The position numbers and the translations under genes were made by a program. A DNA stretch of 62,996 bases, filler included. It is 13 parts of 13 records of this genome, joined end to end, with 100 filler letters (N's around TTAATTAATTAA, not from the genome) between each part and the next. Parts side by side here need not be neighbours in the genome. Positions count along the whole stretch, not along the records: positions 8,572 to 15,091 come from SRR7504441_16865; 12 more parts are not named here. One strand, given 5' to 3'. Positions 3,999 through 45,442 of this stretch are shown here, piece by piece; position 1 is the first letter of the stretch; the number at the start of each line of letters is the position of its first letter. Below the pieces are notes generated by a model. That model saw nothing but the letters and a program-made list of their open reading frames with translations, ran no database searches and was not told where the DNA came from.

Positions 3999-4098
3999 NN
4001 NNNNNNNNNNNNNNNNNNNNNNNNNNNNNNNNNNNNNNNNNNTTAATTAATTAANNNNNNNNNNNNNNNNNNNNNNNNNNNNNNNNNNNNNNNNNNNN
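3999..4098. other. Artificial contig spacer (N-run + TTAATTAATTAA + N-run); 12 such spacers in the window
   Basis: Identical 100-nt block with stops in all six frames, repeated at 8472, 15092, 19062, 26545, 30907, 34298, 38195, 45916, 49184, 53581 and 57761. Confidence 0.98.
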
Positions 4099-8432: not shown

Positions 8433-8662
8433 GCCGTCGGCGACGCCGACACCACTGACAAGGGTTCTAAGNNNNNNNNNNNNNNNNNNNNNNNNNNNNN
8501 NNNNNNNNNNNNNNNTTAATTAATTAANNNNNNNNNNNNNNNNNNNNNNNNNNNNNNNNNNNNNNNNNNNNTCGCAGCGACGGGGGGGGCGGCACCCCAG
8601 CGGGACAGCCGCACCCGACTCCGGCAGCCGCACCAACCGGGCAGGATCAGCCGGCTGCGGAC

Positions 8663-10481
8663 ATGCCAAGGAAGAGGAGCTGGAAGAACCGGACCCAGGA
8701 GACGTCCGCCGCCCGGAACCTCCGCCGCAAGCGGTGGCTACCACAGCAGGGTTGTAGCAGGTTCTGAAGGGGGGCAGGGCCAAACAGAGGCGGTGGGAGC
8801 TGACGTCAACAGCGCAAGACGCAGCTGGCCAGTTGCGCGAGAGTTCAGGCAACCTGCATCCGGGTGAGCGCCTGTGGAAGGTGCGGCAGTTCTCGCAACG
8901 CGGTGCCCCAGCTGCCGATCATCAACCCGGCTTTGAGCCAGCCCGTCGGCACGGGTTGCTTTTCGTGCCTGATGGAGTCAGCGCCTGGTCAGTTGCGACG
9001 GCAAAATTCGAACACCCACAGCGCTGGCGCACAGCCTCGGGCCACGACCTGGTGGTAACTGAAACCTGCCTAGCGAGTGGTGGGGCAACGGATACCTCCT
9101 TAGAGCCCGACAACGTGTACTATTCAGCATGCCACCGGTTCATGGGGCACCCTTACAGGACCGGGCAGACAGTACCGAAGCGAGGGGATCCGGTGATCCT
9201 GCCTCACATCAGCAAGTCCTGCAGCTGCTACTTGATCGGCCGGTTTCTAACCGACCATGGGTTCACGACAAGGGTAAAGGACCTGAACGCGCTCTCAAGC
9301 GATTATTCTTTTCTCTCCCAGGCCTATGCTGTGGATGATTTATTTGTGGTGAGGCCGGTGCTGTGGGAACACGTCACGCACAGCAACAACCTGGAGACCA
9401 AGATGCGCGATCAGATAGATAAGGCCGTGTTTTGGTTTAGCCAGGTCATTAGAGAGCCCGAGCAGCTATATGCCACGTATCTCGCCCATGCATTGCCGGT
9501 AAAAACAATCTGGGGCGCTGAGCCTGCGTCTGGGGAGTTAAGCCTGCATCCATTTCTAGAGGCCAAAGAAGCCGTGGTTGAGGAACGAGATCAAAATTCG
9601 ATAGTCAAGGGATTGGAAACGAGCGTGTCCAAGGATTGTGCACAGCGTGTCCAAGGATTGGAATCGAGCGTGTCTAAAGACAAAGGGGAGGAGAATCCAG
9701 AGGCATGGGAAGCAGCACCGCAAAAGGTGAAGATCGAAGAATACGAATATGAAGGCTTCTACAGTTGCTTGGTGTGTCATACACCACGGCGTAGGTGCGG
9801 TAAGGTGTGTTACAGGTGTGCTACGAGTCATGCCGCCGGTCAAGAGGTGTGCTTTCTTGCTCGGGCTGTTCCGTTGGGCTTATGCATAAAGCCTGTCTAG
9901 GCTCGCAGAAGACTTGCCCGCAATGTGGCCAAGACGCCTTAATACCTTGGGATCGGACGTCACGGAATCGTTCGAATGATTTTACGGAAATTGCTAGCAG
10001 CAACAATGTCCGTGTTAATGACATGATTATGGTCGAATGGGATGATGGTGTGTTTCACGAAGGACGTGTTGTGGAAGAAAGAATATCTCTTTCTTCGACA
10101 ACACACACGGTGATTGAGCACCGCGTCAAATATGGCGACCAGTCGAAGTATTGGCATGACTTCGATTGCCAGGACTTCAGGCTGAAGCAAGTATACGTAC
10201 AACAGCCTGAAGTTGCTCCAGCACGTGCACCCATCAAGCTTGAGCTACAAGTAAATGAGCTACAAGAAGAGCATGCAAGTGCACTAGAAGATGAAGGCTG
10301 GAAGCGTAGCGGGCCTCACGTTGGTAGCATAGTCAAGAAACAATTTGATGGGCAATTGTATCGCGGCACTGTCACGTGGTGGCACCCGAATGCAGAATGG
10401 TGGTATGTAAATTATGACGATGGGGACAAAGAGACGATACACCGTGAAAAGGAACTAATGAGCATCATTATGAAGATATAG
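8663..10481 (+). CDS. Nuclear protein: basic N-terminus, unknown domain, C4HC3 (PHD/RINGv-like) finger, two Tudor-like domains
   Basis: MPRKRSWK...RRKRAKQRR is NLS-like. A 44-nt intron joins ORFs 8833-9900 and 9807-10481 to give CLVC..CSGC..HKAC..CPQC. Tudor-like motifs VEWDDGVFHEGRV and KKQFDGQLYRGTV...WYVNYDDGDKE. Confidence 0.7.
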
Positions 10482-10814
10482 GGTTAATTAATCTAGAGTG
10501 CGCACTGATTAGCCATATACATGTACTCGTATAGGAGTACCGATACAATCATGTACATGTACGTTATATATCTATGAATACGAGTACATTACAAGTCATA
10601 AACGAGGTTGTATAAACTATAATAATTAAAATGAAAACCTATATAGAGGTGCTTTTGTGAGCTAACTCCGCACCGAGTACCACGGAGTGATCGCCGGAGA
10701 TACTTGCAAGCGTACTTGTAATTGTACAACAATGATTGTACTCGTACGGTACTTGGCAATTCGGTGCACGTGCTGATGACGATTGCTTCAATTGCAATAT
10801 TGTCGATACCTCAG

Positions 10815-11540
10815 TTAGAAGTTCTTGAAGTCTGGCACTGGCCTATCACTCTGGGCATGGTCAAGATCGGATGGTACGCTCTGCGGAGCAATCCACTGCG
10901 GTGGCTCTACTGATTCACTGTCTGCAATCTCCGGATCAGGCGCTTGAGAGGTCGACTCTGGCTCGTCAGGCTCTGCGACCGCGGCACCCTCGGGCTCGCC
11001 GGCAGGTCCATCCTCAAGGGCTACGCTCTCCAGCGTCCCCACCACGGCCTGCACGGTCTCCACGGCCTCCTCGGGCTCCTCGCCCGTCTGAGTGCCCACC
11101 TCGCACACGCCGTCCCGGGTGCGCAGCGTCTGGTTCTCCGCAAACTGCCCCACATCAGCCGGCCCGGGCAGGCTGACCACCAGCGCTTTGGAGCTCTTCT
11201 TGAGGCCCTCGGCCTGGGCCTTGTACAGCTCGAGCTGCACGCCCGTCTCTATGAGCCGCTCCTGCAAGTCCAACTCCTCGTGCTCAGCGAACCCGGCCCA
11301 TCGCGGCAGCTGGCCCACTAGCTTGTCCTTCAGGTGCTCGTTGCTGGTACACAACTGGTTGTAAATGTGTTCACTGTGTGAGAGCGCCGACCGCAGCTCG
11401 CTCACCTGCTTGGCCTGGGCCTTGTAGGCGGCGCTCAGGTGCTCAAATTGGCGCTGCAGGGCCCTGTAGTCATCCATCTTGACGAACAGCTGCGGCTGGG
11501 CGTCCGGCCCATCCGCGTACTGGAAGCTCCCCGACAGCAT
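10815..11540 (-). CDS. Coiled-coil protein with acidic tail, unknown function
   Basis: 241-aa ATG ORF with heptad-rich N-terminal half; head-to-head with the gene at 11671. Confidence 0.65.
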   Translation of the reverse strand: MLSGSFQYADGPDAQPQLFVKMDDYRALQRQFEHLSAAYKAQAKQVSELRSALSHSEHIYNQLCTSNEHLKDKLVGQLPRWAGFAEHEELDLQERLIETGVQLELYKAQAEGLKKSSKALVVSLPGPADVGQFAENQTLRTRDGVCEVGTQTGEEPEEAVETVQAVVGTLESVALEDGPAGEPEGAAVAEPDEPESTSQAPDPEIADSESVEPPQWIAPQSVPSDLDHAQSDRPVPDFKNF

Positions 11541-11670
11541 CTCCGCTCCTACCCCCGGTCCGCCCCCACTGCCGTGCTGCTGGTCGCTTGTCGGTTGGGC
11601 TCAGCGGGAGCTCAGAGCAGCGCGGGGTCTGTCAGTGTGCACTGACCGCCGCCGTGTTGTGGGCTCGGCA

Positions 11671-14600
11671 ATGGAGCCGGACTGCGCCCCATTCCAGCAG
11701 GCCTCGCGGGGGAACCAGCTGCGGGTGCTTCTGGCCGGTGCCTGCCCCCGGCCGGGCTGTGTTCCCACCGCCGGGCAGGCACCTCGCGGTCGGGCAAGTC
11801 CGTGCTGCTTCGCCAATTCCGGCTGATGGCTTCACACGACTTCAGCGACCCGCAGCGGCTGTACGGCCGGGTCGTGATCCATAACAACCTGATGCTCGGG
11901 CTCAAGCAAGCCGTGGGGATCGCCCAGGCTCACCAGTGCGCCCCGGTCCCCGCCGCCCGGCCAGCCGGTGCACCAGGTACGACGAGGGGCTCTCCGAGCG
12001 GTACCACAGCGAGTGCCAGCAGGCAGCCCGGGGGCATCGGCAGCCTGGACGGTGCGGGGCAGCTGCTGGCCCTGGGGGATACGGCCACGCTGGACCACGC
12101 GCGAGGCAAGCTGCTCTCGGGGATTTGGGGCGAGCTCAAGCACACGCTAGATAACCGGTTCGCGGATATGCTCGAGGTCAGGCCAGCGGCGGGCCGGCCG
12201 AGCCCTGGGCAGGCGGGCACGCTGTTCTCGATGGACGCGCTGTCGGGGCTGTTGGATGACCTGGACCGAATAGCCGACAGTGCGCCCACACGGCACACGC
12301 TGCGGTGAGCGGGATGCAGGCGGGTACACCCCGACCGTGCGGGACATGATGCTGATGCGGCACCGGTCAGCGCGCTGCCTTGGGGGAGCGCCAGCCTGGG
12401 GCCAGTGATTACCTGAAGGACGAGATTTACGATGAGACACTCGCGATATCGGCAGCCGACCTCACATTCCGACGCCCAGACCTCAAGTGGCGCGCCGCGG
12501 GGCCGGATGGGAGCCGGGGGCAGGACGGGCGATTCAGTGGACGTTGTGCTCTATCTGGTTGGGCTGGCAGACCTGGACGGGTCTCGTAGGACTGCATCGC
12601 AGATGGACGATCTCGTGGAGGTGTATCTCCGGCGCACAGCCAGCGCACAGCGGCGGCAGGTGATCAAGAGTGAGTGTCTAGCGCTCTCAAGGACCCCAGC
12701 TGCCAAGCGTGCCCACTTCTTTGTAGTTTTGACCAAGCTGGACCTGTTTGGGGCCGACACACCTGTGCTGGCAGAGGCTGAGGCGCAGGTGCTAGTTCAT
12801 GGCTGTGTGTTGTGATGAGCGGTTTCAGGTTAAGAAGAGCCTGGGCTGGCGGCTGGACGATGTTATGGCCGCCGTGGAGGCGGATCGTGGGGCTATATTC
12901 ACGCATGCGTGTGTCTGCACCACTCTGTCGACGATGCATGTGCTCGTGCCTGCCGGAACGGGCTGATTGAATGGCAGATGTTCACACTCTTGTCCAGGAT
13001 GAAGCGGGCGCTTGCCGAGCAGAGTGACACGCCGGGGGGTTGCCCAACTGACCGCGGTTATCTGCAGCGGGGGTTCCGTTGCCGTCCACTTCGGAAGGAC
13101 TGGAGCGAGTGCAGCTGGCAGTGCCGTTGTTATGTGGACACTGTGAGAAGGTGCGCAGCTGGTCGCAGCCGTGCGAACGAGGGCAGGCTCCGGCGTTGTT
13201 GCACTGCGAGCGGTGTGACTGCAGCTTCTGCAGCTCCTGCTCGGCTAAGGTCCACCAAGGGCGGCTACAGAGCCACAAATTAAGTAACTTCTCGCCTTTA
13301 AAGGTGAGCTGCCATCAGCCAGTCAGGCCAGCGGATGACAGGAGAACTGGCCGCTGCCATGCCCGATTCATCGCGGCCAGATACGCAGGTTTGCGTCCCA
13401 GCTTGATGCAAAGGTGCAGATTGGCACAGCTGCTCCCAAGCTGGGCGGCAGGTGGGCTGCTCGCACTGTTTCCTCACTGGCGGCCCGCTGGCTGGGCACC
13501 CCTGTACAGAACTGAGCAGCGTGTGGGGCGAGGCGAGCCTGGCCTAGCTGGTTGAGCCGTGACTGGCCGGTCAGGTCGAGCACAAGTATCAGTTCATCTT
13601 CGACCAGAAGCCTCGGCTGGTGGCTGAGATCGATCAGCGGAACGGGCTGGTGGAGGAAATAGATCAGCTGCACCTGAGCGCCCAGAAGCAGATCGTCGAC
13701 CAATTCTTGCAGTTGGAGCGGTTGCTCAGCCGGAAGCGAGCAGAGCAGCTGGAGACGCTAGATCTGGTAGAGCCGCTCCGGGCTGGGCTGACGGCTTGGC
13801 AGCTGTGCCTGTACCGCCGGAAGCAGGCAGAGTTTGAGATGGACCAAATGGAGCACGCGCTCAGCCTAGTTAACGTTGACATCAAACAGCTGCACATGTT
13901 CGTTTGCGAGCAGTCCAACGCGCTTAACCGGAAGGTGCCCAGCAGCCCCTGTGAGTGCTCAGCCCTGTCGGCAGCCAACCCCGGAACAAACTGCCAGTTT
14001 CTGCTCACTCGACGCCGTCCGCAGATTTGCTGAGACCCAGCGGAGCGACGAGCTGTCGCCGGGCCGCGGTGCATCGCTCTGCCAGGTGAATTGACCTGGA
14101 CCGGCGGTGTAAGACGGGCTGGGCAGCTGCCGCACCAGCTGGACACGACTGGAGTGAAGGCCGCGCTCGAGGCGATGGAGCTCGAAGCTGACCCGCCTTT
14201 GCACGAGCAGCTGCAGCTCTCGAAGGCACCGGGTAGGCAGGTGCAGCTCTGAGTTTGTCATGGCAGGTCGAGCTCGAGAGGAGGCAGCGGCCAGCGCCTG
14301 GAGCAGCGGTTGGGTCGAGTGTGACCACGCCAGAGGCCGAGGCCGCAACTGAGTAAACAGGCCAGTGTTGCAACCCATGATGGCTGTCTCAGGTATGAGT
14401 ACTACTATCAGCTTCAATTAGCAGGACAGCTCGACTTTACGGCGCTCGACTACTTGGGAATTCTCCGGGTGTGCTCAGTGGACAGGAAAGGCCGCCAGGT
14501 GCTGTTCTAGCCAACCGAAACATCTTGCTCTGTCGAGATGAGGCGTTGTCCTTATCTGACACTGAGTAGGTGATTCGGCTGTCTGGTGCAACAATTCAGG

Positions 14601-15046
14601 GCTCATCGGATATAGCGCTGCTCATTCCCTATCTAATGCATAGTCTAGATCCATACGTGGCTAACGATTATGTAATTGTCTCGATACACAGCCCGGTGAG
14701 TGTTGGGTGGGTGTGCTGTCGAGAATGACCGGTGCAGCTTCTAATGGCTCATCTAGAAGTCTCCCAACTCCGAAGCGTGGCCAGAATGCTTCCAAGCAAG
14801 TACAATGACAACCTGCGGCAGATCCTGGTGAGGCTTTGCAGCTGTATGCGCGCAGAGTGATCTCGGGCCTAGGTGGTGGGCGCGAGTACAGGATTCCGGC
14901 TGGGGATGCGCCTGAACTACCCGTTCATGAGCAACGAGGTCTGGCAGAGCATAAAGTATGTCAAGAACCTTGACGAGCTGGATAAGTACCTAGATGTAGA
15001 CCAGTTGTGCCTCCCTCCCGACGGGAGCCAAACCGGTGCTGGATAG
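11671..15046 (+). CDS. Degenerate G-protein alpha domain + two B-boxes + coiled coil + BCH/CRAL-TRIO fusion protein (about 18 introns)
   Basis: Spliced: RVLLAGTSRSGKSVLLRQF (G1), LDRIADSGYTPTVRDMMLMR, VLYLVGLADLD, FVVLTKLDLF (G4), IFTHACVCT (G5). Then CGHCEK..HCERCDCSFCSSCSAKVH..H, CPIH..CSHC..GHPC, a coiled coil, and VDRKGRQVI..LDPYVANDYVIV..IKYVKNLDELDKYL. Stop TAG at 15044-15046. Confidence 0.8.
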
Positions 15047-15191
15047 CTACGGTGGATTTGAGTGGCTTTACACGATATCGGTGGGCAGCAGNNNNNNNNN
15101 NNNNNNNNNNNNNNNNNNNNNNNNNNNNNNNNNNNTTAATTAATTAANNNNNNNNNNNNNNNNNNNNNNNNNNNNNNNNNNNNNNNNNNNN

Positions 15192-17267
15192 ATGTTCTAT
15201 GATACCTTCTGTGTACCTAGCGTGATTCGTCTGTTTGGCGGCGCGCCAATTCTGACTCAGTTTCGCGTCTGGGACGCGATCCTGGCAGTGGGCCCACACA
15301 CATTAGTGTCCTCAGTGCTGGCGGTCATAGCCATGCATGAGATGGTTCTGCTATCGGCTTTCACTTTTGCGAGTCTGAACACGACTCTTCGACATTGCAT
15401 GGAGGCCTGTTATGACGCCGACGAGCTGATGGATCTCTCGCATGCGATCTGCATGTAAGTACTGACTTGCACTGTAGTTTGGGCTTAAATGGGAGCCTGA
15501 GACGCTCAATGTAGCTTACTGGTGTGCTGTGCAGCAAAACTAGATTGGAGGAACGGTGGCTGCATGATTACATGCCAGCACTACATCGGTTGGCCTGCGA
15601 TGAGTTGCTCCGCACCTCTCAGGCCGGGAACGTCCAAGCTGTCTGCGACTTGCTTCAGGGCCACTTTGCACATAACAGCCCCAAGCACGCAGTTGGGCAC
15701 GGCGGACTGGCTCCACTGCACGCTGCATTCATGTCGCAATGGCCCCCGGGAGCCGGCGGCTCAATATTTGACCAAGTGCAGCGATTTGGTGAGGCGACCG
15801 CCGCACGTTCTGCCACAGTCGAGCACTTAGTGCAGTGCAGCTCGATTGACGTCAACAGCGCCACTTGCGAGGTGGCTGCCATACTGGATTGGCAGTAAAT
15901 GTGGTGGTTTGTAGGGGGTGACTGCGCTGCACATGGCAGCCTGCACAATCATTCCTGCCGAGCAGGACCAAGGCCATGCTTCGTGCAGGTCCAACCCAGA
16001 GCCGTCCTCCCGTTCTGATCGGAATCGTCATGCAGGCAGCTGCTGGCTCATGGGGCGGATTTGTTTGCGCGCTGCATCGACGGGCGGACTGCTCTGCACA
16101 CCGCTGCCTCAGTTGGAGCCACGCACGCTATAGCTGAGCTGGTGAGGGCGGCTTCTGAGCAGGAGGTTGTGGTGGAGCTATTGAGATCTCGGATGGTCGG
16201 CGGGTTTACGCCGCTGCATCTTGCAGCCTCGGGCAGTGACTGCGATGGCGATTTCACCCGGTCGGTGCGGGCGTTGCTCAAGTTCGGGGCCGAGATCGAG
16301 ATCGAGGCCGCACTTGGGCTGACAGCGCTCCAGATGGCAGCGCACGCGGGCGACCCCACGGTGGGCCAGCTGGCTGAGGCGGGCTCACCCAATCCAGGTG
16401 GTTTCAGCGCTGGTGAGTTGCGGTGCAAGTTTGGAGCATGCGACCCAGCCTACTGGGCTGACGGCGCTGCACTTGGCCGCTGTGATGGGCAACTCGACCA
16501 CAGTGATTGTGCTCTTGAAGGTGCCCAGCCGGCTTGCGACTGGGCGTGCGACTAGTGCTGCAGGCCAGGGCGTCGGCCTCTGCCCAGTCTGCCACCGGGT
16601 GCACGGCCAACATGCTAGCCGCCCGGAACGAGCACCTCCAGCTGCGCGACATGCTCCGGGTGGCCCAGGAGGCTCAGCTCCGCGGGCGTGGGGCCGAGCT
16701 CACTGCCGCTTCGGTTGAGCAGCTCGACTCGCTGCTTGAGGAGCCTTTCGCGGTGGCTCGCGTCGCGGTTTGGGCTGAGCTTTAGGGTCTCAGGTGCACC
16801 AGTTCGACGCCTTCTTGCTCTGGAGCTACCCGGAAGGCCGGCGGCTGGTCTGCCTGCTCGAGGACTGCGCCGGGGTCATCCGGCATGCGCTCAGGTACCA
16901 GCAAGCCCGCAAGCCGCTGCTCGGTCGGTTCGGGATCCCAACTAGTGCGATGCAACAGTGGCAAGCTACTAAGGACCATTTCACGAATGCATGGGCCAGC
17001 CTGCACCAGAGCTACCTGGACGCCAGCTCGCTCCAGCAACTCGGGCTTCTGCGCAATGGGGTGGAGGTGCCGTCGGCTGACTGCGAGGTGGTGGAGCAGA
17101 TCGTAGCTCTTGTGAACCGAGTCCGGCTCGACGCGCTGACAACACTACAACCGTCTTTCGATACTTTTCTTGGCACCAAAGAGCACGAGGAGCTCCTCAA
17201 CCAAATGGCAGAATTAGACTTAGTGCCTGGCTGGATCCAGCGACGTGTTGCAATGAATGTGGGCTAG
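15192..17267 (+). CDS. TBC (Rab-GAP) C-terminal part + ankyrin repeats + RGS-like domain; 5'-truncated
   Basis: RVWDAILAVG..CYDADELM (TBC end). GLAPLHAA, GRTALHTAA, GFTPLHLAA, GLTALHLAA (ankyrin). LDSLLEEP..HQFDAFL..YLDASS..LQPSFDTFLGT (RGS-like). Confidence 0.72.
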
Positions 17268-18980: not shown

Positions 18981-19161
18981 CATCACGATCGTTTGCGCGC
19001 CTAAGCATGCGCCTAGGCCTTCGACGCGTACTTAGCAGTCGGCGCTCCGCCTGTACTCTCGNNNNNNNNNNNNNNNNNNNNNNNNNNNNNNNNNNNNNNN
19101 NNNNNTTAATTAATTAANNNNNNNNNNNNNNNNNNNNNNNNNNNNNNNNNNNNNNNNNNNN

Positions 19162-21812
19162 TGGTTGCCAAACTGACTCCAAAACAGCCCAGACACCGCA
19201 TCAAACCTGCGGGCGAGCGTGGCAGCGTCCGTGTGCTTCTCAAGCGCGGTAGCAATCTCTGACAACTGGGCCAATGCCAGAATCGTATAGAACGCCGAGC
19301 ACATTTCGGCCGGAGTTGTTTCCTTTGGCCAGTGTGGCAGGCTGGGGATTTGGGTGACCGGTATCCAGTCGCCTAGCCCGGCGCACTTGTTTAGCCCGTC
19401 AGTGCTGCACGGCTGGCGATCCCAGTACGCCAGCAAGTCAAGCAGACCTTCCCAGTGCTCTTGAATCAACAAGGTGTTGCCATAAGCTCTGAACGCGTTG
19501 TAGGCAATCACAGGGTACGCAGCCTGCCAGACTGTGGATCCCGGGAAAGCCCCGTAGGGTCCTGTTGTGAAGGGCACCACGTCAGGGATCGAGCCACGGT
19601 GCAGATCAGGGTCGGCACAAGAGCCCCCGCCCTCGCCCATCGGAGTCTCGCACCCGATCAGCTGGTCATCTCGGATCAGCCTCAGGAAGTTGACATAAAA
19701 CGCCTCCATGTCGTGGTTGAGCATGGCTTCGTTGCTCGACATCTGGGCGTCCCCCATCCAGCCTCGTCGCTCCCGCTGAGGACAGTCGGTCGGTATGCTG
19801 TACAGATTGGACCGCTGGGCGTACACAGTCGCCGATTGGGCCCGGTTGAGCACGTCAGCAGTTCCGCTGGGATGGCCGGCTATGGACGGCAGGTTAACCT
19901 GGCCCACAACTGGCACGTCTGTGTGCACAAAGTGCTGGATGAGCGTGCTCACTGTCGGAGTCTCGCCAGCAGGCAGCCCCCAGATCTGGGCATATCGGAA
20001 GCCAGCATACATAAACTCCGGCTGGTACGACTCGACTCGGCCTGTGCCGGCCATGATGTAGAGATTGGTCTGGTTGGCGCAGTTGCCACCCCAGATCTTA
20101 CTAGAGTTTAGCACCCCTGCCCCAACAAAGCTATTGCAATTGGTGCAACCCTCATCCATTGGAGAGCCCGGCTGTACCTCCGAGTTGCTGCAGTAGCCGT
20201 TCTTAACAGACACCTGTGGGGCGTCGTCGGTTGGAATCGCCTGCAGCGTCTCGGCGTGCCTCACATATATTTTGGTTCCGACCGGCCCGGTGGCATGAAT
20301 CGATGTGAACCCTGCGACATTTTGTCCGAAATCGAATACATAACTGGTCTCGTTCAGTGGGAGCGGGTGGGGTGGCGGGGACGGCATGGCTCGACAGCCG
20401 GAGGCTATGACCACCAGCCGTTTCAGGCTGTTAGGGCACGGGTCAACTCCTCCAAACGCCCCCACCCTCGGGGCTATCTTACAGCTCGTCCTGCCCAGGC
20501 ATAGTCTGGCCACGTACGCCGACGCATTGGGCACGCCACACTGGCCGTGACTGGCGTTGGCGCAGCCTCGCGCGAGTGTCGGCTCTCCGAAGTCGGCGAA
20601 GTCGATCTGTTCTATCTTGCCAGAGCCCGGAGCGCAAGCCAATGTGAGCTCTGCTTTGCCGAACTGATCCTCTGAGATCTCCCCGCCGATCCTGTGGCCG
20701 GTGCAGGTGACCGGGGTGTAGCCATTCCTACTATGGTCAATCTTGGTGATTTTGACCGCATTCCTGCTCTCGGTTATCCTGATCGGTGGCAGTTGCGAGG
20801 CGGTCAGCGCTGAGTCTGGCACCCCTCTCGGCTGGAACAGCGCCACTGGCTGCCATTCAGGACTAGTCTCACGGTTCAGCGGGGCTGAGTCCCAGCCCGG
20901 GAGCAGCCGGCGTGCGTCAAATATCTCGCCATGATATTCGTGGTCATACTGCAACGGCCCACTCCGGCCAAGCCATCCAGCGGTCGAGCTGTAGTGTGTT
21001 ACAGTCGTGCCATCCGAGAGCTCTGCTACAAGCTGCATCCGGAACCCGAGGCAGGCGTCCCTCGTGTGCCCTGCATCGGTCATGTTGCACCAGACGTCCA
21101 TGTAGCCATACTTGTAATGCCCCAGCATCGCCCCGAACACGTGGGTCCGACCCGACGCGAGCCGGGAGGTGAGATCAAAGCTCGAGTACAGCAGCCGCTT
21201 GGGGTAGGCGCTCTGCGGAGGATCCAGCACGTGGTCGCCTACCCGCTGCCCGTCGAGTGACAAGACGAACGCACCCAGCCCGACAGCGTACGCCCGGGCC
21301 CGAACCACCCTACCACCCGCCGGCAGCGTCAGCTCGCTTCGCAGCTGGTTAGCGCCTCCGATCCACTCGGCGGGGCCCCAGCTCGCTTGGCTCGGCGCCG
21401 TGTCGAACAGTGCGCGAGCTGGCCCGCCGGCCGGGCCGCTGGTAGGCTGCACCTGCACTTGCAGCCAGAACGAGCCGTCTGCTGGGAGCTCTGGGATTGG
21501 CCGGGCCGACGCGCGCGGGGTAGGGCTGGTCACATTGCCTGATGACCACAAGATGGCCCCGGTGCGGGCGCAGCCGATGGTGGCCAGATAACCCGCCTGG
21601 CCGATCCCTCGCGGGGCCCCGGGCTGAGGCTCCAGGCGCCAGCTGAGCTCGAGCCCAGTGGTGGGCAACCCGAGGGTCGGGCCGGCCAGCGGCGGAATCT
21701 GAGCGTTCACACGGAGGTATGCGGCCTGCACGCTGCTCGCGGCGGGCTGGGCGAGCGCCAGCAGCGCTAGGCCCAACGAGCACACCACCCTGTCCCGGCA
21801 GTGCACGGCCAT
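19162..21812 (-). CDS. Alpha-L-rhamnosidase (GH78) with inserted SUEL/rhamnose-binding lectin domain; uninterrupted ORF, 3'-truncated
   Basis: Signal peptide; VFDFGQNVAG, FMYAGFRY, SIPTDCPQRERRGWMGDA and GLGDW motifs. Lectin insert FADFGEPT..CLGRTSC..FGGVDPCPNSLKRL. Confidence 0.92.
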
Positions 21813-21887
21813 CCGCAATAAAATTTTATTTATTGAGGAACGCCGAATGGGGAAGCACTAAGCACTGCTTGGGCCGGTGAGGACGGG

Positions 21888-42702: not shown

Positions 42703-45442
42703 ATGCGGGTGACGGTACTCCCGGACGGGGGGGGGGCTGCCGGTGCCACTGTCCGCCTCGCCCGGGACCAGCCTGGCCGAGCTTCAGCGGTTGGTAGAAT
42801 CAGCGGCAGGGGTGGAGGTGGCCGAACTCACCCTCCGGCCGGACCCGAGCGCCGCCTGCCCCGTGCTGGTCCCGCTGGCCCAAGAGATGCTCCAGCTCCC
42901 ACTGAGCAGCCTGCGCGCCGGGCCTGACCTCCGCTGTCACCTCAAGCAGCAGCCTGGCAAGCCCGGTGCCGTCGCCATGTGCATTCAGCCCGCGAGGCCC
43001 CAGCCTGCCCGCCGGGGCACTCAGCCGGCCGCGCCCGAGCCTCGACCGGCCAGCCCGCCGGAGAAGAGCTCGACCAGCCCGCCGCAAGAGGCCGTGGGCC
43101 CTCCAGCCCCGGCCGCAGCCCCGGCTGCAGCCCCGCGGGTGGTGAGGGCAGCCAGGAAGGTCCCGGCCGCGGCTGTGGAGAAGGAATGCGCCGAGATGGC
43201 CGCGGCGGCCGCGCGGCTGCAAGCCGGGGAGATGCGGCTGCGGCAGACAGGGCAGCCTGGGGGCGAGTGCACGGCGACTGCGAGCCCGACTGGGCACAGG
43301 AGGCGGGAGCGGAGGCATGACCCGCTGGCGGAGCTCGGCCGAAGGCGGGAGCGGAGATTGAACAGCCCGCCCGCTCGACAGTCAGTTGCAGCGCCGAGCA
43401 GCGAGCCAGAGCGGGTGCTAGTGGCACCAGTCAAGACCAGTAGCCCCGTACCAGCCGGCTGTGGGGCGCCAGGTGGTCGGCCTGTAGGCAGGTCTCCTTG
43501 TGCAGCGGGGCAGCAGCTGCGCTCGGACACGATGCCAGGACCTAGTCCTGAGCACTTCTCGGACACGGTGCCAGGGCCTAGTCCTGAAGCCACGGATGAT
43601 CCGGAGCACTTCTCGCAGAGGATGCCAGGGCCTAGTCGTGAGCACTTCTCGCAGATGATCCCCGGCAGCAGCTTGGTCTTGCCATCCGAACCCCAGGCTG
43701 CGGTGCCAGGCCGGCCGTCCGAGGAGGTCTTGTCAGTCGGCCAGGCTGCGGTGCCGAGCGGGTCACCTGCAGGGACACCCTCGCAGCCGGTGCCGAACCA
43801 GACTGCAAGTGAGTCCATTGGCGGTGCGGGGTCGCCGGAGGGAGAGTTGACGGGGCCCCGGAAGTTTCATTCTCATGGTAGCGGGGTTATTTTCCGGTCG
43901 GATTTCATAGCGCGCGGTGGGAGCGCGGCCGACTTTAGTTACTATGACTGGAACCAGGACGGTTTGTTGGACCCTCACGAGGTAGCCGCCCGGCGCAGGA
44001 TAAAGGAGCAGCTGGAGAGCGTGACCGGCCCTGTGCTGGTGGCTGAGGGCGACGTGTTCGACGAGGACAATGACGGCAAGCTGGACCGTTACGAGCTCGA
44101 GGCTAGGGCGGTGGCTAGACACAGGGCGGCCGATGAGATGGCCCGGTTTGGCGGCGAGCAGGTGACGCTGGACCAGTTTGTGGCAGCTGGCGGGGATCCG
44201 AGCGAGTTTTCGAGTTACGACTTGAACCTGGATGGCACTCTCAACCGTACAGAACTGGAGCGCCGAGCTCTGGTCAAGCAGCGGACTCTGGCAGACCAGC
44301 ACCTGATGGGCCAGCCGGGCGGGCTAGTGGACCTTGCTGGTTTCACAGCGGCCGGTGGGACTCGGGCCGAGTTCCGTCTGCGCGATGCCAATCAGGATGG
44401 GTTCCTCGACCAGACCGAGCTTGAGGCCCGCGTGGCAGCTGCGATCGACGGGATGGAGCGGCCGCCAGGCGCGCCCACTGGCTCGTGCTTTCGTGGTCTG
44501 CCGATGCTCCGGTGCGACAACTGTGGCAAGGTGCACAGCCACCTGGCCTGCCGACTGCCCCAGCGCGCCCAGCAGCCGGGGGAGGCGGCCACGCCAGCCA
44601 GAAGCTGGTTCGAAGCGAATGTCGCCAGTAAACGGCCGGCGAGCATTTGCGAGCTGAGGCGACGGCGGGTTGGATTCGACCCAAGTAGCAGCTGCGGGGA
44701 GGGTGCTGAGGTGGAGAGCGGGGCCTGGGTGCTCGAGCTGAACAGAAGGGCGCTCGCAGACTCCTCGGGGGCGCACGTGCTATCCTCGCCGTTGCAGCAG
44801 CGCTCGAGAAGAGCGGTGGCTATTAATGGGCATATTGGGTGTGTTAATAGGGATGCCGATGTAGATCTCGACGGTGCAACTGCGGGCACGAGCACAGACG
44901 TAACACCACACGATGCAAGCAAGGACACCGATAAAACTGGAGGCGAACATGTACCCCACAGTTTAACTGAAGAGACTGATGTAGCCCCCCGCAACGTAAT
45001 TATTAATGGCGATGCTGTAGAAACCGACACAAACTCAGCGTCTGTGGCCAGGCCCAGAGTGCAGAGAGCACGGCAACTCTCTGAGGAAACTCTGCGCAAA
45101 CAGGCTATCCAGTTCCATCAAAGCCTAGGATTCCCTGCTGGGACATTCGAGCGTTTGCGTGCCAAGCCCACACAGGCGCAGAGGCGATCAGTAGGCCAAA
45201 GTAAAGCGATGCTTCAGTCAATGCCAGCGCTCAAGGAGCCACTGCAAAAGCCAAAGTCTGAGCAGGAGCCTAAGCACGAGCAAGAACTGGAGCGAGCACC
45301 GGAGACAGCGCAAAGGCCCAACCAGGCCATTGAACAGAGTGATAGCGACGTTAGCGAGTTTGAACGCGAGTTCGAGGCTGTGATAAAGACAAAGGCGCGG
45401 ACACGCTTTGTACTTGTGAAGCACCCCGCCTTAGACATCTAA
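42703..45442 (+). CDS. EF-hand protein with ubiquitin-like N-terminus and long low-complexity regions
   Basis: Four EF loops: DWNQDGLLDPHE, DEDNDGKLDRYE, DLNLDGTLNRTE, DANQDGFLDQTE. The ATG at 42703 joins the long ORF only if the G10 run at 42727-42736 is G9. Confidence 0.75.
43525..43665 (+). repeat. Coding minisatellite, about 4 copies of (M/V)PGPSPEHFS
   Basis: Repeated tgccagg(a/g)cctagtc(c/g)tgagcacttctcg units. Confidence 0.8.

Follow-up and report, generated by a model that had tools for sequence, protein, structure and literature searches.

A probable fusion of a divergent G-alpha-like domain with B-box and BCH modules in an uncultured marine eukaryote

To our knowledge, G-alpha subunits are almost always free-standing proteins. 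In canonical members, a long N-terminal helix and a free C-terminal tail serve G-beta-gamma and receptors, with the tail reading the receptor, and the switch-I Thr and the G3 Gly contact Mg and the gamma-phosphate. Protists commonly show lineage-specific domain shuffling. The gene described here lies at 11671-15046 on the + strand of contig SRR7504441_16865, which forms positions 8572-15091 of the window, that is, of the whole stretch of 62,996 nucleotides (nt) of DNA analysed. It is best read, with a probability of about 0.6, as one nuclear gene encoding a divergent G-alpha domain with a Ras-like core and a helical insert, a B-box, a degenerate second B-box-like motif, a helical region, a disordered linker and a BCH domain. 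A conserved G-alpha domain without the usual catalytic residues and without a free tail is unusual.

Canonical G-alpha proteins (Gz and Gi1, 9md1_A and 9kft_A; G-alpha 13, 7t6b_A) are the sole family matched by the P-loop exon and by the segment from the helical domain to G4 of the window protein, and both share the G1-to-switch-I spacing, the G4 Asp and the Arg-finger Arg. The window protein differs in having its C-terminus fused to zinc fingers and its N-terminal helix shortened by about 17 amino acids (aa), with ESGKS at model residue 26 compared to residue 43 in 7t6b_A. The 88-aa translation of 12525-12788, run with HMMER exhaustively against 1.84 billion representative proteins, retrieved no canonical G-alpha at E<=1e-3, which shows how low the identity is. 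Plant XLG1-3 are described as G-alpha homologues without residues for nucleotide binding or hydrolysis that have a Cys-rich region attached, are partly nucleotide-independent in their action and still bind G-beta-gamma (bioRxiv 10.1101/795088). Compared by description, the order is reversed: XLGs carry the Cys-rich region N-terminally and G-alpha C-terminally with a free end, and they are described without a B-box/helical/BCH module, whereas the window protein also has a shortened N-terminal helix and switch II.

A parallel to the arrangement proposed here is TRIM23/ARD1 (RING, B-box, B-box, coiled coil, ARF), in which one chain combines a GTPase from the Arf/G-alpha lineage with a coiled coil and two B-boxes. 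It has a RING and a C-terminal Arf-like GTPase, whereas the window protein has no RING, an N-terminal G-alpha-like GTPase and a BCH domain after the scaffold. G-alpha is considered a descendant of an Arf-like ancestor (PMC8358228), TRIM23 is placed as having arisen within Metazoa (PMC8358228, PMC3503706) and TRIM37-like proteins are reported outside animals (PMC3503706); the window protein is most simply regarded as an assembly independent of TRIM23. BCH/CRAL_TRIO_2 proteins (BNIP-2, p50RhoGAP, GDAP2 and the S. pombe BCH structures 7e0w/8k70) share the NL(R/K)xhhhh core with it. Partner domains given for BCH are BNIP-2-N, macro, RhoGAP, RasGAP or none, and the main text of that survey contains no occurrence of G-alpha, B-box or zinc (PMC3313917). 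None of the XLGs, TRIM23, TRIM37-like proteins or known BCH partners has this composition or order.

The gene model was obtained by three-frame reading, with exons joined by coordinates and splice sites scored with position weight matrices (PWMs) made from the gene's own introns. It runs from ATG 11671 to TAG 15044-15046 through 24 exons, and the coding sequence (CDS) of 2403 nt, about 801 aa, contains no stop and no frame break. ATG 11671 appears to be a credible start, and there is no other ATG within 11600-11670. Every one of the 23 introns is of the GT-AG type, and their lengths range over 31-71 nt (median 40); 18 start with GTG and 21 end with CAG, and phases 0/1/2 occur 14, 4 and 5 times. 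Guanine-plus-cytosine (GC) contents at the three codon positions are 0.645/0.407/0.738, with 0.68 in introns, and a low-GC2/high-GC3 signature recurs in nearly every exon, the exceptions being two in the linker. An earlier reading by a model that saw only the letters (hereafter the sequence-only reading) had followed one frame through about 18 introns; the single frame holds, and the intron count rises to 23. Two introns, at 12621-12659 (+, 39 nt) and 13151-13186 (+, 36 nt, inside the first B-box), are in-frame and therefore invisible to a reader of open frames. They rank first and second among in-frame candidates in a scan of the exons (PWM scores 14.9 and 14.6). Another candidate, 12670-12726 (score 10.7), was dropped; the related protein P0001, described below, keeps this stretch as coding. 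In-frame introns of 36-40 nt thus hide in open frames of this organism, so gene models and domain spacings based on open reading frames (ORFs) only would be wrong, with spurious insertions of 12-13 aa. Counts of intron-like sites at a threshold of 12 (22 on the + strand, 9 on the - strand and 5.9 +/- 2.0 in 60 shuffles) are given no weight because they are circular, the matrices having been trained on the same introns.

Pfam scans were made on translated single exons and on P0001, and scores for this gene stay under the gathering cut-offs because the queries are fragments. Three families (G-alpha, B-box and CRAL_TRIO_2) match at E<=2.5e-4, colinear on one strand and in the expected order, and these assignments stand at fragment level. 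The G-alpha-like domain (11671-13023, +, model residues 1-323) comprises 11 exons at 11671-11737, 11779-11935, 11977-12012, 12044-12176, 12213-12279, 12320-12365, 12406-12486, 12524-12620, 12660-12788, 12829-12939 and 12978-13023. The only Pfam match of the P-loop exon is G-alpha (PF00503; E 9.2e-5, 22.2 bits, positions 30-73 of the profile hidden Markov model, HMM), and P0001 matches the same family at E 5.9e-5 (22.8 bits, HMM 142-263), each against a cut-off of 48.8 bits. The two matches fall on different, non-overlapping and colinear parts of the profile, and the other five G-alpha pieces scanned against Pfam gave no match. In the PDB, the P-loop exon has seven matches, every one a chain or chimera of G-alpha 12/13 (best E 0.051), and G-alpha chains account for 58 of the 60 matches listed for P0001 (best E 0.016). 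PDB sequence searches gave two chance matches for exon 12829-12939 and none for exon 12660-12788. With two Pfam fragment matches and G-alpha chains at the top of both PDB lists, the assignment of the N-terminal region to G-alpha in the sequence-only reading is supported at fragment level, for a domain that is, judged by its sequence, very divergent. The ESM Atlas places P0001 near Gtr1/RagA, G-alpha and Arf clusters at scores of <=0.84, a lead only, and AlphaFold2 of P0001 without an alignment gives a mean predicted local distance difference test score of 40.9.

P0001 is one of two matches at E<=1e-3 in the HMMER search of 1.84 billion representatives. The other, P0002 (E 4e-5), is a 607-aa tandem-repeat protein and was dropped as a compositional match. 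P0001 (E 5.1e-19) is a 206-aa protein from Logan, a single-member cluster on one contig of 1,135 nt, and aligns to the spliced model with 128/189 identical residues (68%; blastp, E 1e-81). It is colinear with the spliced form across introns 12177-12212, 12280-12319, 12366-12405 and 12487-12523, and it lacks 13 residues that exactly match the GT...CAG segment 12621-12659, which marks that segment as an in-frame intron. For the G-alpha part the exon-intron structure is accordingly firm. P0001 diverges at the position of donor 12789 and meets a stop 30 residues on, which may be read as an intron left in an incompletely spliced transcript from a relative.

The first B-box (13068-13303, +) is encoded by exons 13068-13150 and 13187-13303. 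Once intron 13151-13186 is removed, its spacing is C-x2-C-x8-C-x2-C-x4-C-x2-C-x4-H-x6-H, which we take to fit the type-1 B-box consensus. Exon 13187-13303 matches zf-B_box (E 1.1e-4, 22.7 bits, cut-off 24.1) and ANCHR-like_BBOX (E 3.7e-5, 24.2 bits, cut-off 27). A putative second B-box (13342-13520, +, exons 13342-13413 and 13452-13520) is recognised by its Cys/His pattern alone, C-x2-H-x7-A-x3-D-x4-C-x2-C-x9-H-x-C, in which one expected Cys is Ala. Pfam returned no family for either half, and a degenerate type-2 B-box is a plausible description of this motif. The N-terminus is G-alpha-like and no RING family appears in the Pfam scans, which contain only a weak IBR overlap on the B-box. A TRIM-like pair of B-boxes had been proposed from the letters; the first has a profile match just under threshold, the second has none, and a RING is absent. 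A helical, coiled-coil-prone region of 108 aa follows (13575-13934, +, exons 13575-13766 and 13803-13934), with two Pro/Gly and 58% E/K/Q/R/D/L. A crude, weak heuristic restricts the heptad signal to residues 504-545, there is no profile match and a PDB search gave one phage protein at E 0.38. By analogy with TRIM coiled coils, this region may dimerise.

The helical region is followed by a low-complexity linker (13975-14352, +) on exons 13975-14085, 14127-14232 and 14295-14352; of these, only 14127-14232 has a strong coding GC signature. The splice at 14233 is ambiguous between 14233-14294 and 14241-14266, both of which are frame-compatible. The CRAL_TRIO_2/BCH-like domain (14393-15043, +) occupies exons 14393-14498, 14570-14695, 14738-14827 and 14873-15043. 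Its last exon (57 aa) matches CRAL_TRIO_2 (PF13716) at E 2.5e-4 (21.8 bits, cut-off 23, HMM 80-130 of 137) and exon 14570-14695 matches it at E 0.019-0.029 (15.2-15.8 bits, HMM 18-48), the two fragments being colinear. In the PDB, the last exon finds TLR7 and a yeast BCH chain at E about 1 (1.1 for yeast BCH), which is non-significant, and retrotransposon clusters at <=0.84 in the ESM Atlas were discarded as noise. The BCH hallmark is given as R(R/K)h(R/K)(R/K)NL(R/K)xhhhhHPs (PMC3313917). In the corresponding stretch, SKYNDNLRQILVVGAS, the core NLRQILVV is present, and the basic cluster before NL and the HP are absent (SKYND...GA).

Whether the BCH domain belongs to the same transcript bears on the alternative that survives best, in which two genes lie here: a G-alpha/B-box/helical protein read through donor 13935 to a stop at 14031-14033, and a separate BCH-only protein from ATG 14175. 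Frame 2 is indeed open over 13563-14033, the in-frame ATG 14175 lies inside the strongly coding-like exon 14127-14232, linker exon 13975-14085 has GC values of 0.65/0.62/0.70 at its codon positions, and proteins with the BCH domain alone have been reported from plants, green algae and arthropods (PMC3313917). Against this, introns 13935-13974 (score 16.1) and 14086-14126 (19.3, the best of all) keep one open frame from the helical region to exon 14127-14232, and the would-be intergenic region would measure just 141 nt and contain the best-scoring intron. Further along, the BCH frame 14325-14510 has no ATG ahead of the domain. Two genes are thus unlikely, and placement of the BCH domain on the same transcript appears probable from the splice pattern, with the link from coiled coil to BCH less certain than the junction between G-alpha and B-box.

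Within the G-alpha domain of this single-gene reading, the nucleotide-binding motifs are partly retained. The P-loop G1 motif (GxxxxGK[ST]) is GTSRSGKS at model residues 23-30, aligned to ESGKST of G-alpha 13, and G4 is TKLD at residues 253-256 and also in P0001, with Thr for Asn in the consensus [NT]KxD. About 130 residues separate G1 from switch I, and the P0001 profile match starts at HMM 142; together with the alignment of LLDDLERIA...YTPTVRDM to the end of the helical domain of Gz/Gi1, these observations fit a helical-domain insert between G1 and switch I, the presence of which is supported by sequence comparison. HMMER alignments of P0001 to Gz/Gi1 place a two-residue gap opposite the TT of switch I and DLTFR opposite DVGGQ at G3, with the G3 Gly replaced by Phe, and switch II is about 4 residues shorter. 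All of these motif assignments, the two present and the two absent, agree with what had been read from the letters. The stretch after TKLD (IFTHACVCTT, then exon MFTLLSRMKRALAEQ) is presumably G5 and the last helix, which no search confirmed. Loss of hydrolysis is suggested by these motif losses.

The altered switch stretches (MLMRHRDYLKDE and DLTFRRPD) and TKLD are identical in the window and in P0001 at an overall identity of 68%, which argues for a selected non-canonical function rather than decay. The same constancy of the altered segments, 100% between two species that are 68% identical overall, suggests a specific role and would also suit a G domain that still works as a switch within the same architecture, either with an Arg in place of the Gln or with residues supplied by a partner or dimer. 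The intact P-loop, the retained Asp of TKLD and the Arg aligned with the Gz Arg finger favour a working switch, whereas the deleted Thr pair of switch I, the G3 Gly replaced by Phe and the shortened switch II oppose it, and we regard this alternative as rather improbable.

The G-alpha part and the B-box part meet at a 44-nt GT-AG intron (13024-13067, +, phase 1) with ordinary splice scores. The junction AEQ|TGVP proposed in the sequence-only reading is found there with the frame kept. After the G5-like stretch comes exon 12978-13023, which takes the place of the last G-domain helix; its splice to the B-box exon keeps the phase, so the G-alpha C-terminus is not free. Since no ATG precedes the zinc finger in the B-box frame (13052-13555), this frame must be spliced to upstream sequence; if donor 13024 is not used, the G-alpha frame overruns the B-box in another frame up to 13283. 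On these sequence features a G-alpha to B-box fusion is very likely. Separate genes would require G-alpha to end at TGA 12964-12966 via donor 12940 and a second gene to start at ATG 12978. Exon 12978-13023 does start with ATG right after an acceptor, and frame 0 does meet the stop at 12964-12966, but the intergenic gap would be 11 nt where the gene's own 5' spacer measures 130 nt, the G domain would be stripped of the helix after G5, and intron 12940-12977 has ordinary splice scores (5.9 + 6.1); such a split is highly improbable.

Six sequencing runs contain 5-8% of sampled words, and four of them were compared, giving 8 pieces. Pieces of the locus occur at 98-100% identity in these four marine or aquatic metagenome runs, so the source is taken to be an uncultured marine eukaryote. 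Piece 5 (X3, 37 nt, 5 mismatches, loose ends) comes from something else. The pieces from the four runs include no joints and give no cover of 11600-12585, 12951-13090, 13291-14137 and 14877-15091. Seven strain differences separate the metagenome contigs from the window. The four exonic ones (12864, 13132, 14674 and 14770) are all synonymous third-position changes, of which the BCH domain has two and the G-alpha part and B-box 1 have one each; the three others (12628, 13178 and 14703) are intronic, and reading 13151-13186 as coding would make 13178 C>T a change from CGA to the stop codon TGA. At the low depth of the variant contigs (2-4.5), each difference taken by itself could be an error. Together they support the frames of the G-alpha, B-box and BCH parts and the second hidden intron, and purifying selection acts on these frames. 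That the gene is an artefact, through a chimeric contig or as a pseudogene in decay, is scarcely credible: the assembly is of metagenome type with short contigs and no second contig bridges the junction, but there is no frame break in 2403 nt, the exonic variants are synonymous, the orthologue at 68% identity keeps the same spliced frame and each of the three domain regions is covered in part by independent contigs at 98-100% identity.

Several observations weigh against the single-gene reading or against parts of it. Every Pfam match lies below its gathering cut-off, and seven of the ten clean exons match nothing. The coding GC signature is missing from linker exons 13975-14085 and 14295-14352, the second B-box lacks one ligand and the putative coiled coil is suggested by composition and a crude heptad score. 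An Arg is kept opposite the Gz Arg finger (the second Arg of the RSR/RTR stretch), therefore some catalysis may persist. If P0001 represents a mature mRNA, the protein of that relative would stop before G5 and the B-box. Word-indexed searches gave no related protein of more than 386 aa, the corresponding limit being 138 aa where the B-box exon served as query. No spliced junction of this organism occurs in any read or contig of the four runs, and two 151-nt contigs of the only RNA library (X4) are colinear with the DNA over introns 12621-12659 and 12789-12828; they therefore represent unspliced pre-mRNA or DNA carry-over. Independent contigs of the four runs leave 12951-13090 unbridged, therefore the G-alpha/B-box junction rests on one assembly. 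At the 3' end, a possible extra intron (15036-15088, +) has a donor score of 6.3 and an acceptor score of 9.3, at the top of the range; if it is used, TAG 15044-15046 is removed and the gene runs off the contig, so the 3' end of the gene may be missing through the contig end at 15091.

No paper was found on G-alpha joined to a B-box or to Sec14/BCH, in a literature search outside which lay domain-architecture databases, eukaryotic transcriptome sets and supplements. In word-indexed searches against longer proteins, the G-alpha ORF piece had no match at E<=0.01 among the 8000 best-matching candidates; the B-box exon had 54 candidates among longer proteins, none related, and no candidate of near length. 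Scans of JGI metagenome contigs gave 334 and 266 pattern matches, none confirmed by tblastn, and no full-length relative. The architecture was unfamiliar to the sequence-only reading, and nothing alike was found in the literature, protein searches or metagenome contig scans.

With its P-loop intact and the guanine-specificity Asp of TKLD kept, the G domain probably still holds guanine nucleotide; it would do so without the Mg/gamma-phosphate sensors and the catalytic Gln, and with a short N-terminus and no free C-terminal tail. The lost switch residues, short N-terminus and missing free tail would make it a constitutive or nucleotide-locked pseudo-GTPase, not a receptor-coupled timer switch. 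This pseudo-GTPase module may be placed on a self-associating B-box/helical scaffold, which the BCH tail could dock to membranes, lipids or Rho-type GTPases. BCH domains are described as binding membranes, lipids or Rho-type GTPases (PMC2938388, PMC11090974). With no RING, the protein would not itself be an E3 ligase. We suggest tentatively, at somewhat less than even odds, that a G-alpha paralogue uncoupled from receptors and G-beta-gamma, maintained by selection despite the loss of its catalytic switch residues, heads a B-box/coiled-coil scaffold that is TRIM-like but RING-less and ends in a Sec14-like BCH tail. If this is true, the gene would be an independent, mirror-image reinvention outside animals of the TRIM23 principle, in which a B-box/coiled-coil rod bears a GTPase, and a RING-less TRIM-type B-box/B-box/helix module in a non-animal lineage. 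It could imply a new family of G-alpha-derived pseudo-GTPase scaffolds in marine protists that tie nucleotide state or assembly to Rho/lipid signalling, a second way of reusing the G-alpha fold as a non-catalytic module after the plant XLGs, and a new partner for the BCH domain.

The window consists of 13 contigs of about 3-8 kb. Artificial linkers (3999-4098, 8472-8571, 15092-15191 and further) join them as N44+TTAATTAATTAA+N44, that is, as N runs paired around TTAATTAATTAA, with 24 runs of 44 N in all; adjacency across linkers is therefore meaningless and genes at contig ends are cut. The gene-carrying contig (6.5 kb) has such linkers on both sides. Upstream of the gene, a 130-nt head-to-head spacer (11541-11670) separates its ATG from that of a minus-strand gene, the neighbour ORF 10815-11600 (-; 261 aa, Met at 11540), which is rich in Glu/Ala/Gln and has no Pfam match. 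The same contig carries an ORF with a PTM/DIR17-like Tudor domain (9804-10481, +, E 1.1e-10), and the name of this family points to plants or algae, which may be a hint to lineage.

No Rfam match occurs in the window. On the next contig, an exon fragment at 15192-15455 (+) has weak RabGAP-TBC matches (E 0.0017 and 0.0053, below cut-offs); this is another GTPase regulator, and its different contig implies no linkage to the G-alpha gene. An uninterrupted 915-aa frame at 19110-21857 (-) encodes bacterial-type alpha-L-rhamnosidase domains (E 2e-34, 6e-27 and 7e-17) and a SUEL lectin domain (E 2e-10). The absence of introns in this frame contrasts with the intron-dense G-alpha gene; the frame may have been acquired by gene transfer, or its contig may belong to another organism in the bin. 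A 909-aa open frame at 42713-45442 (+), on a contig with 69% GC, has several EF-hand matches (E about 1e-9).

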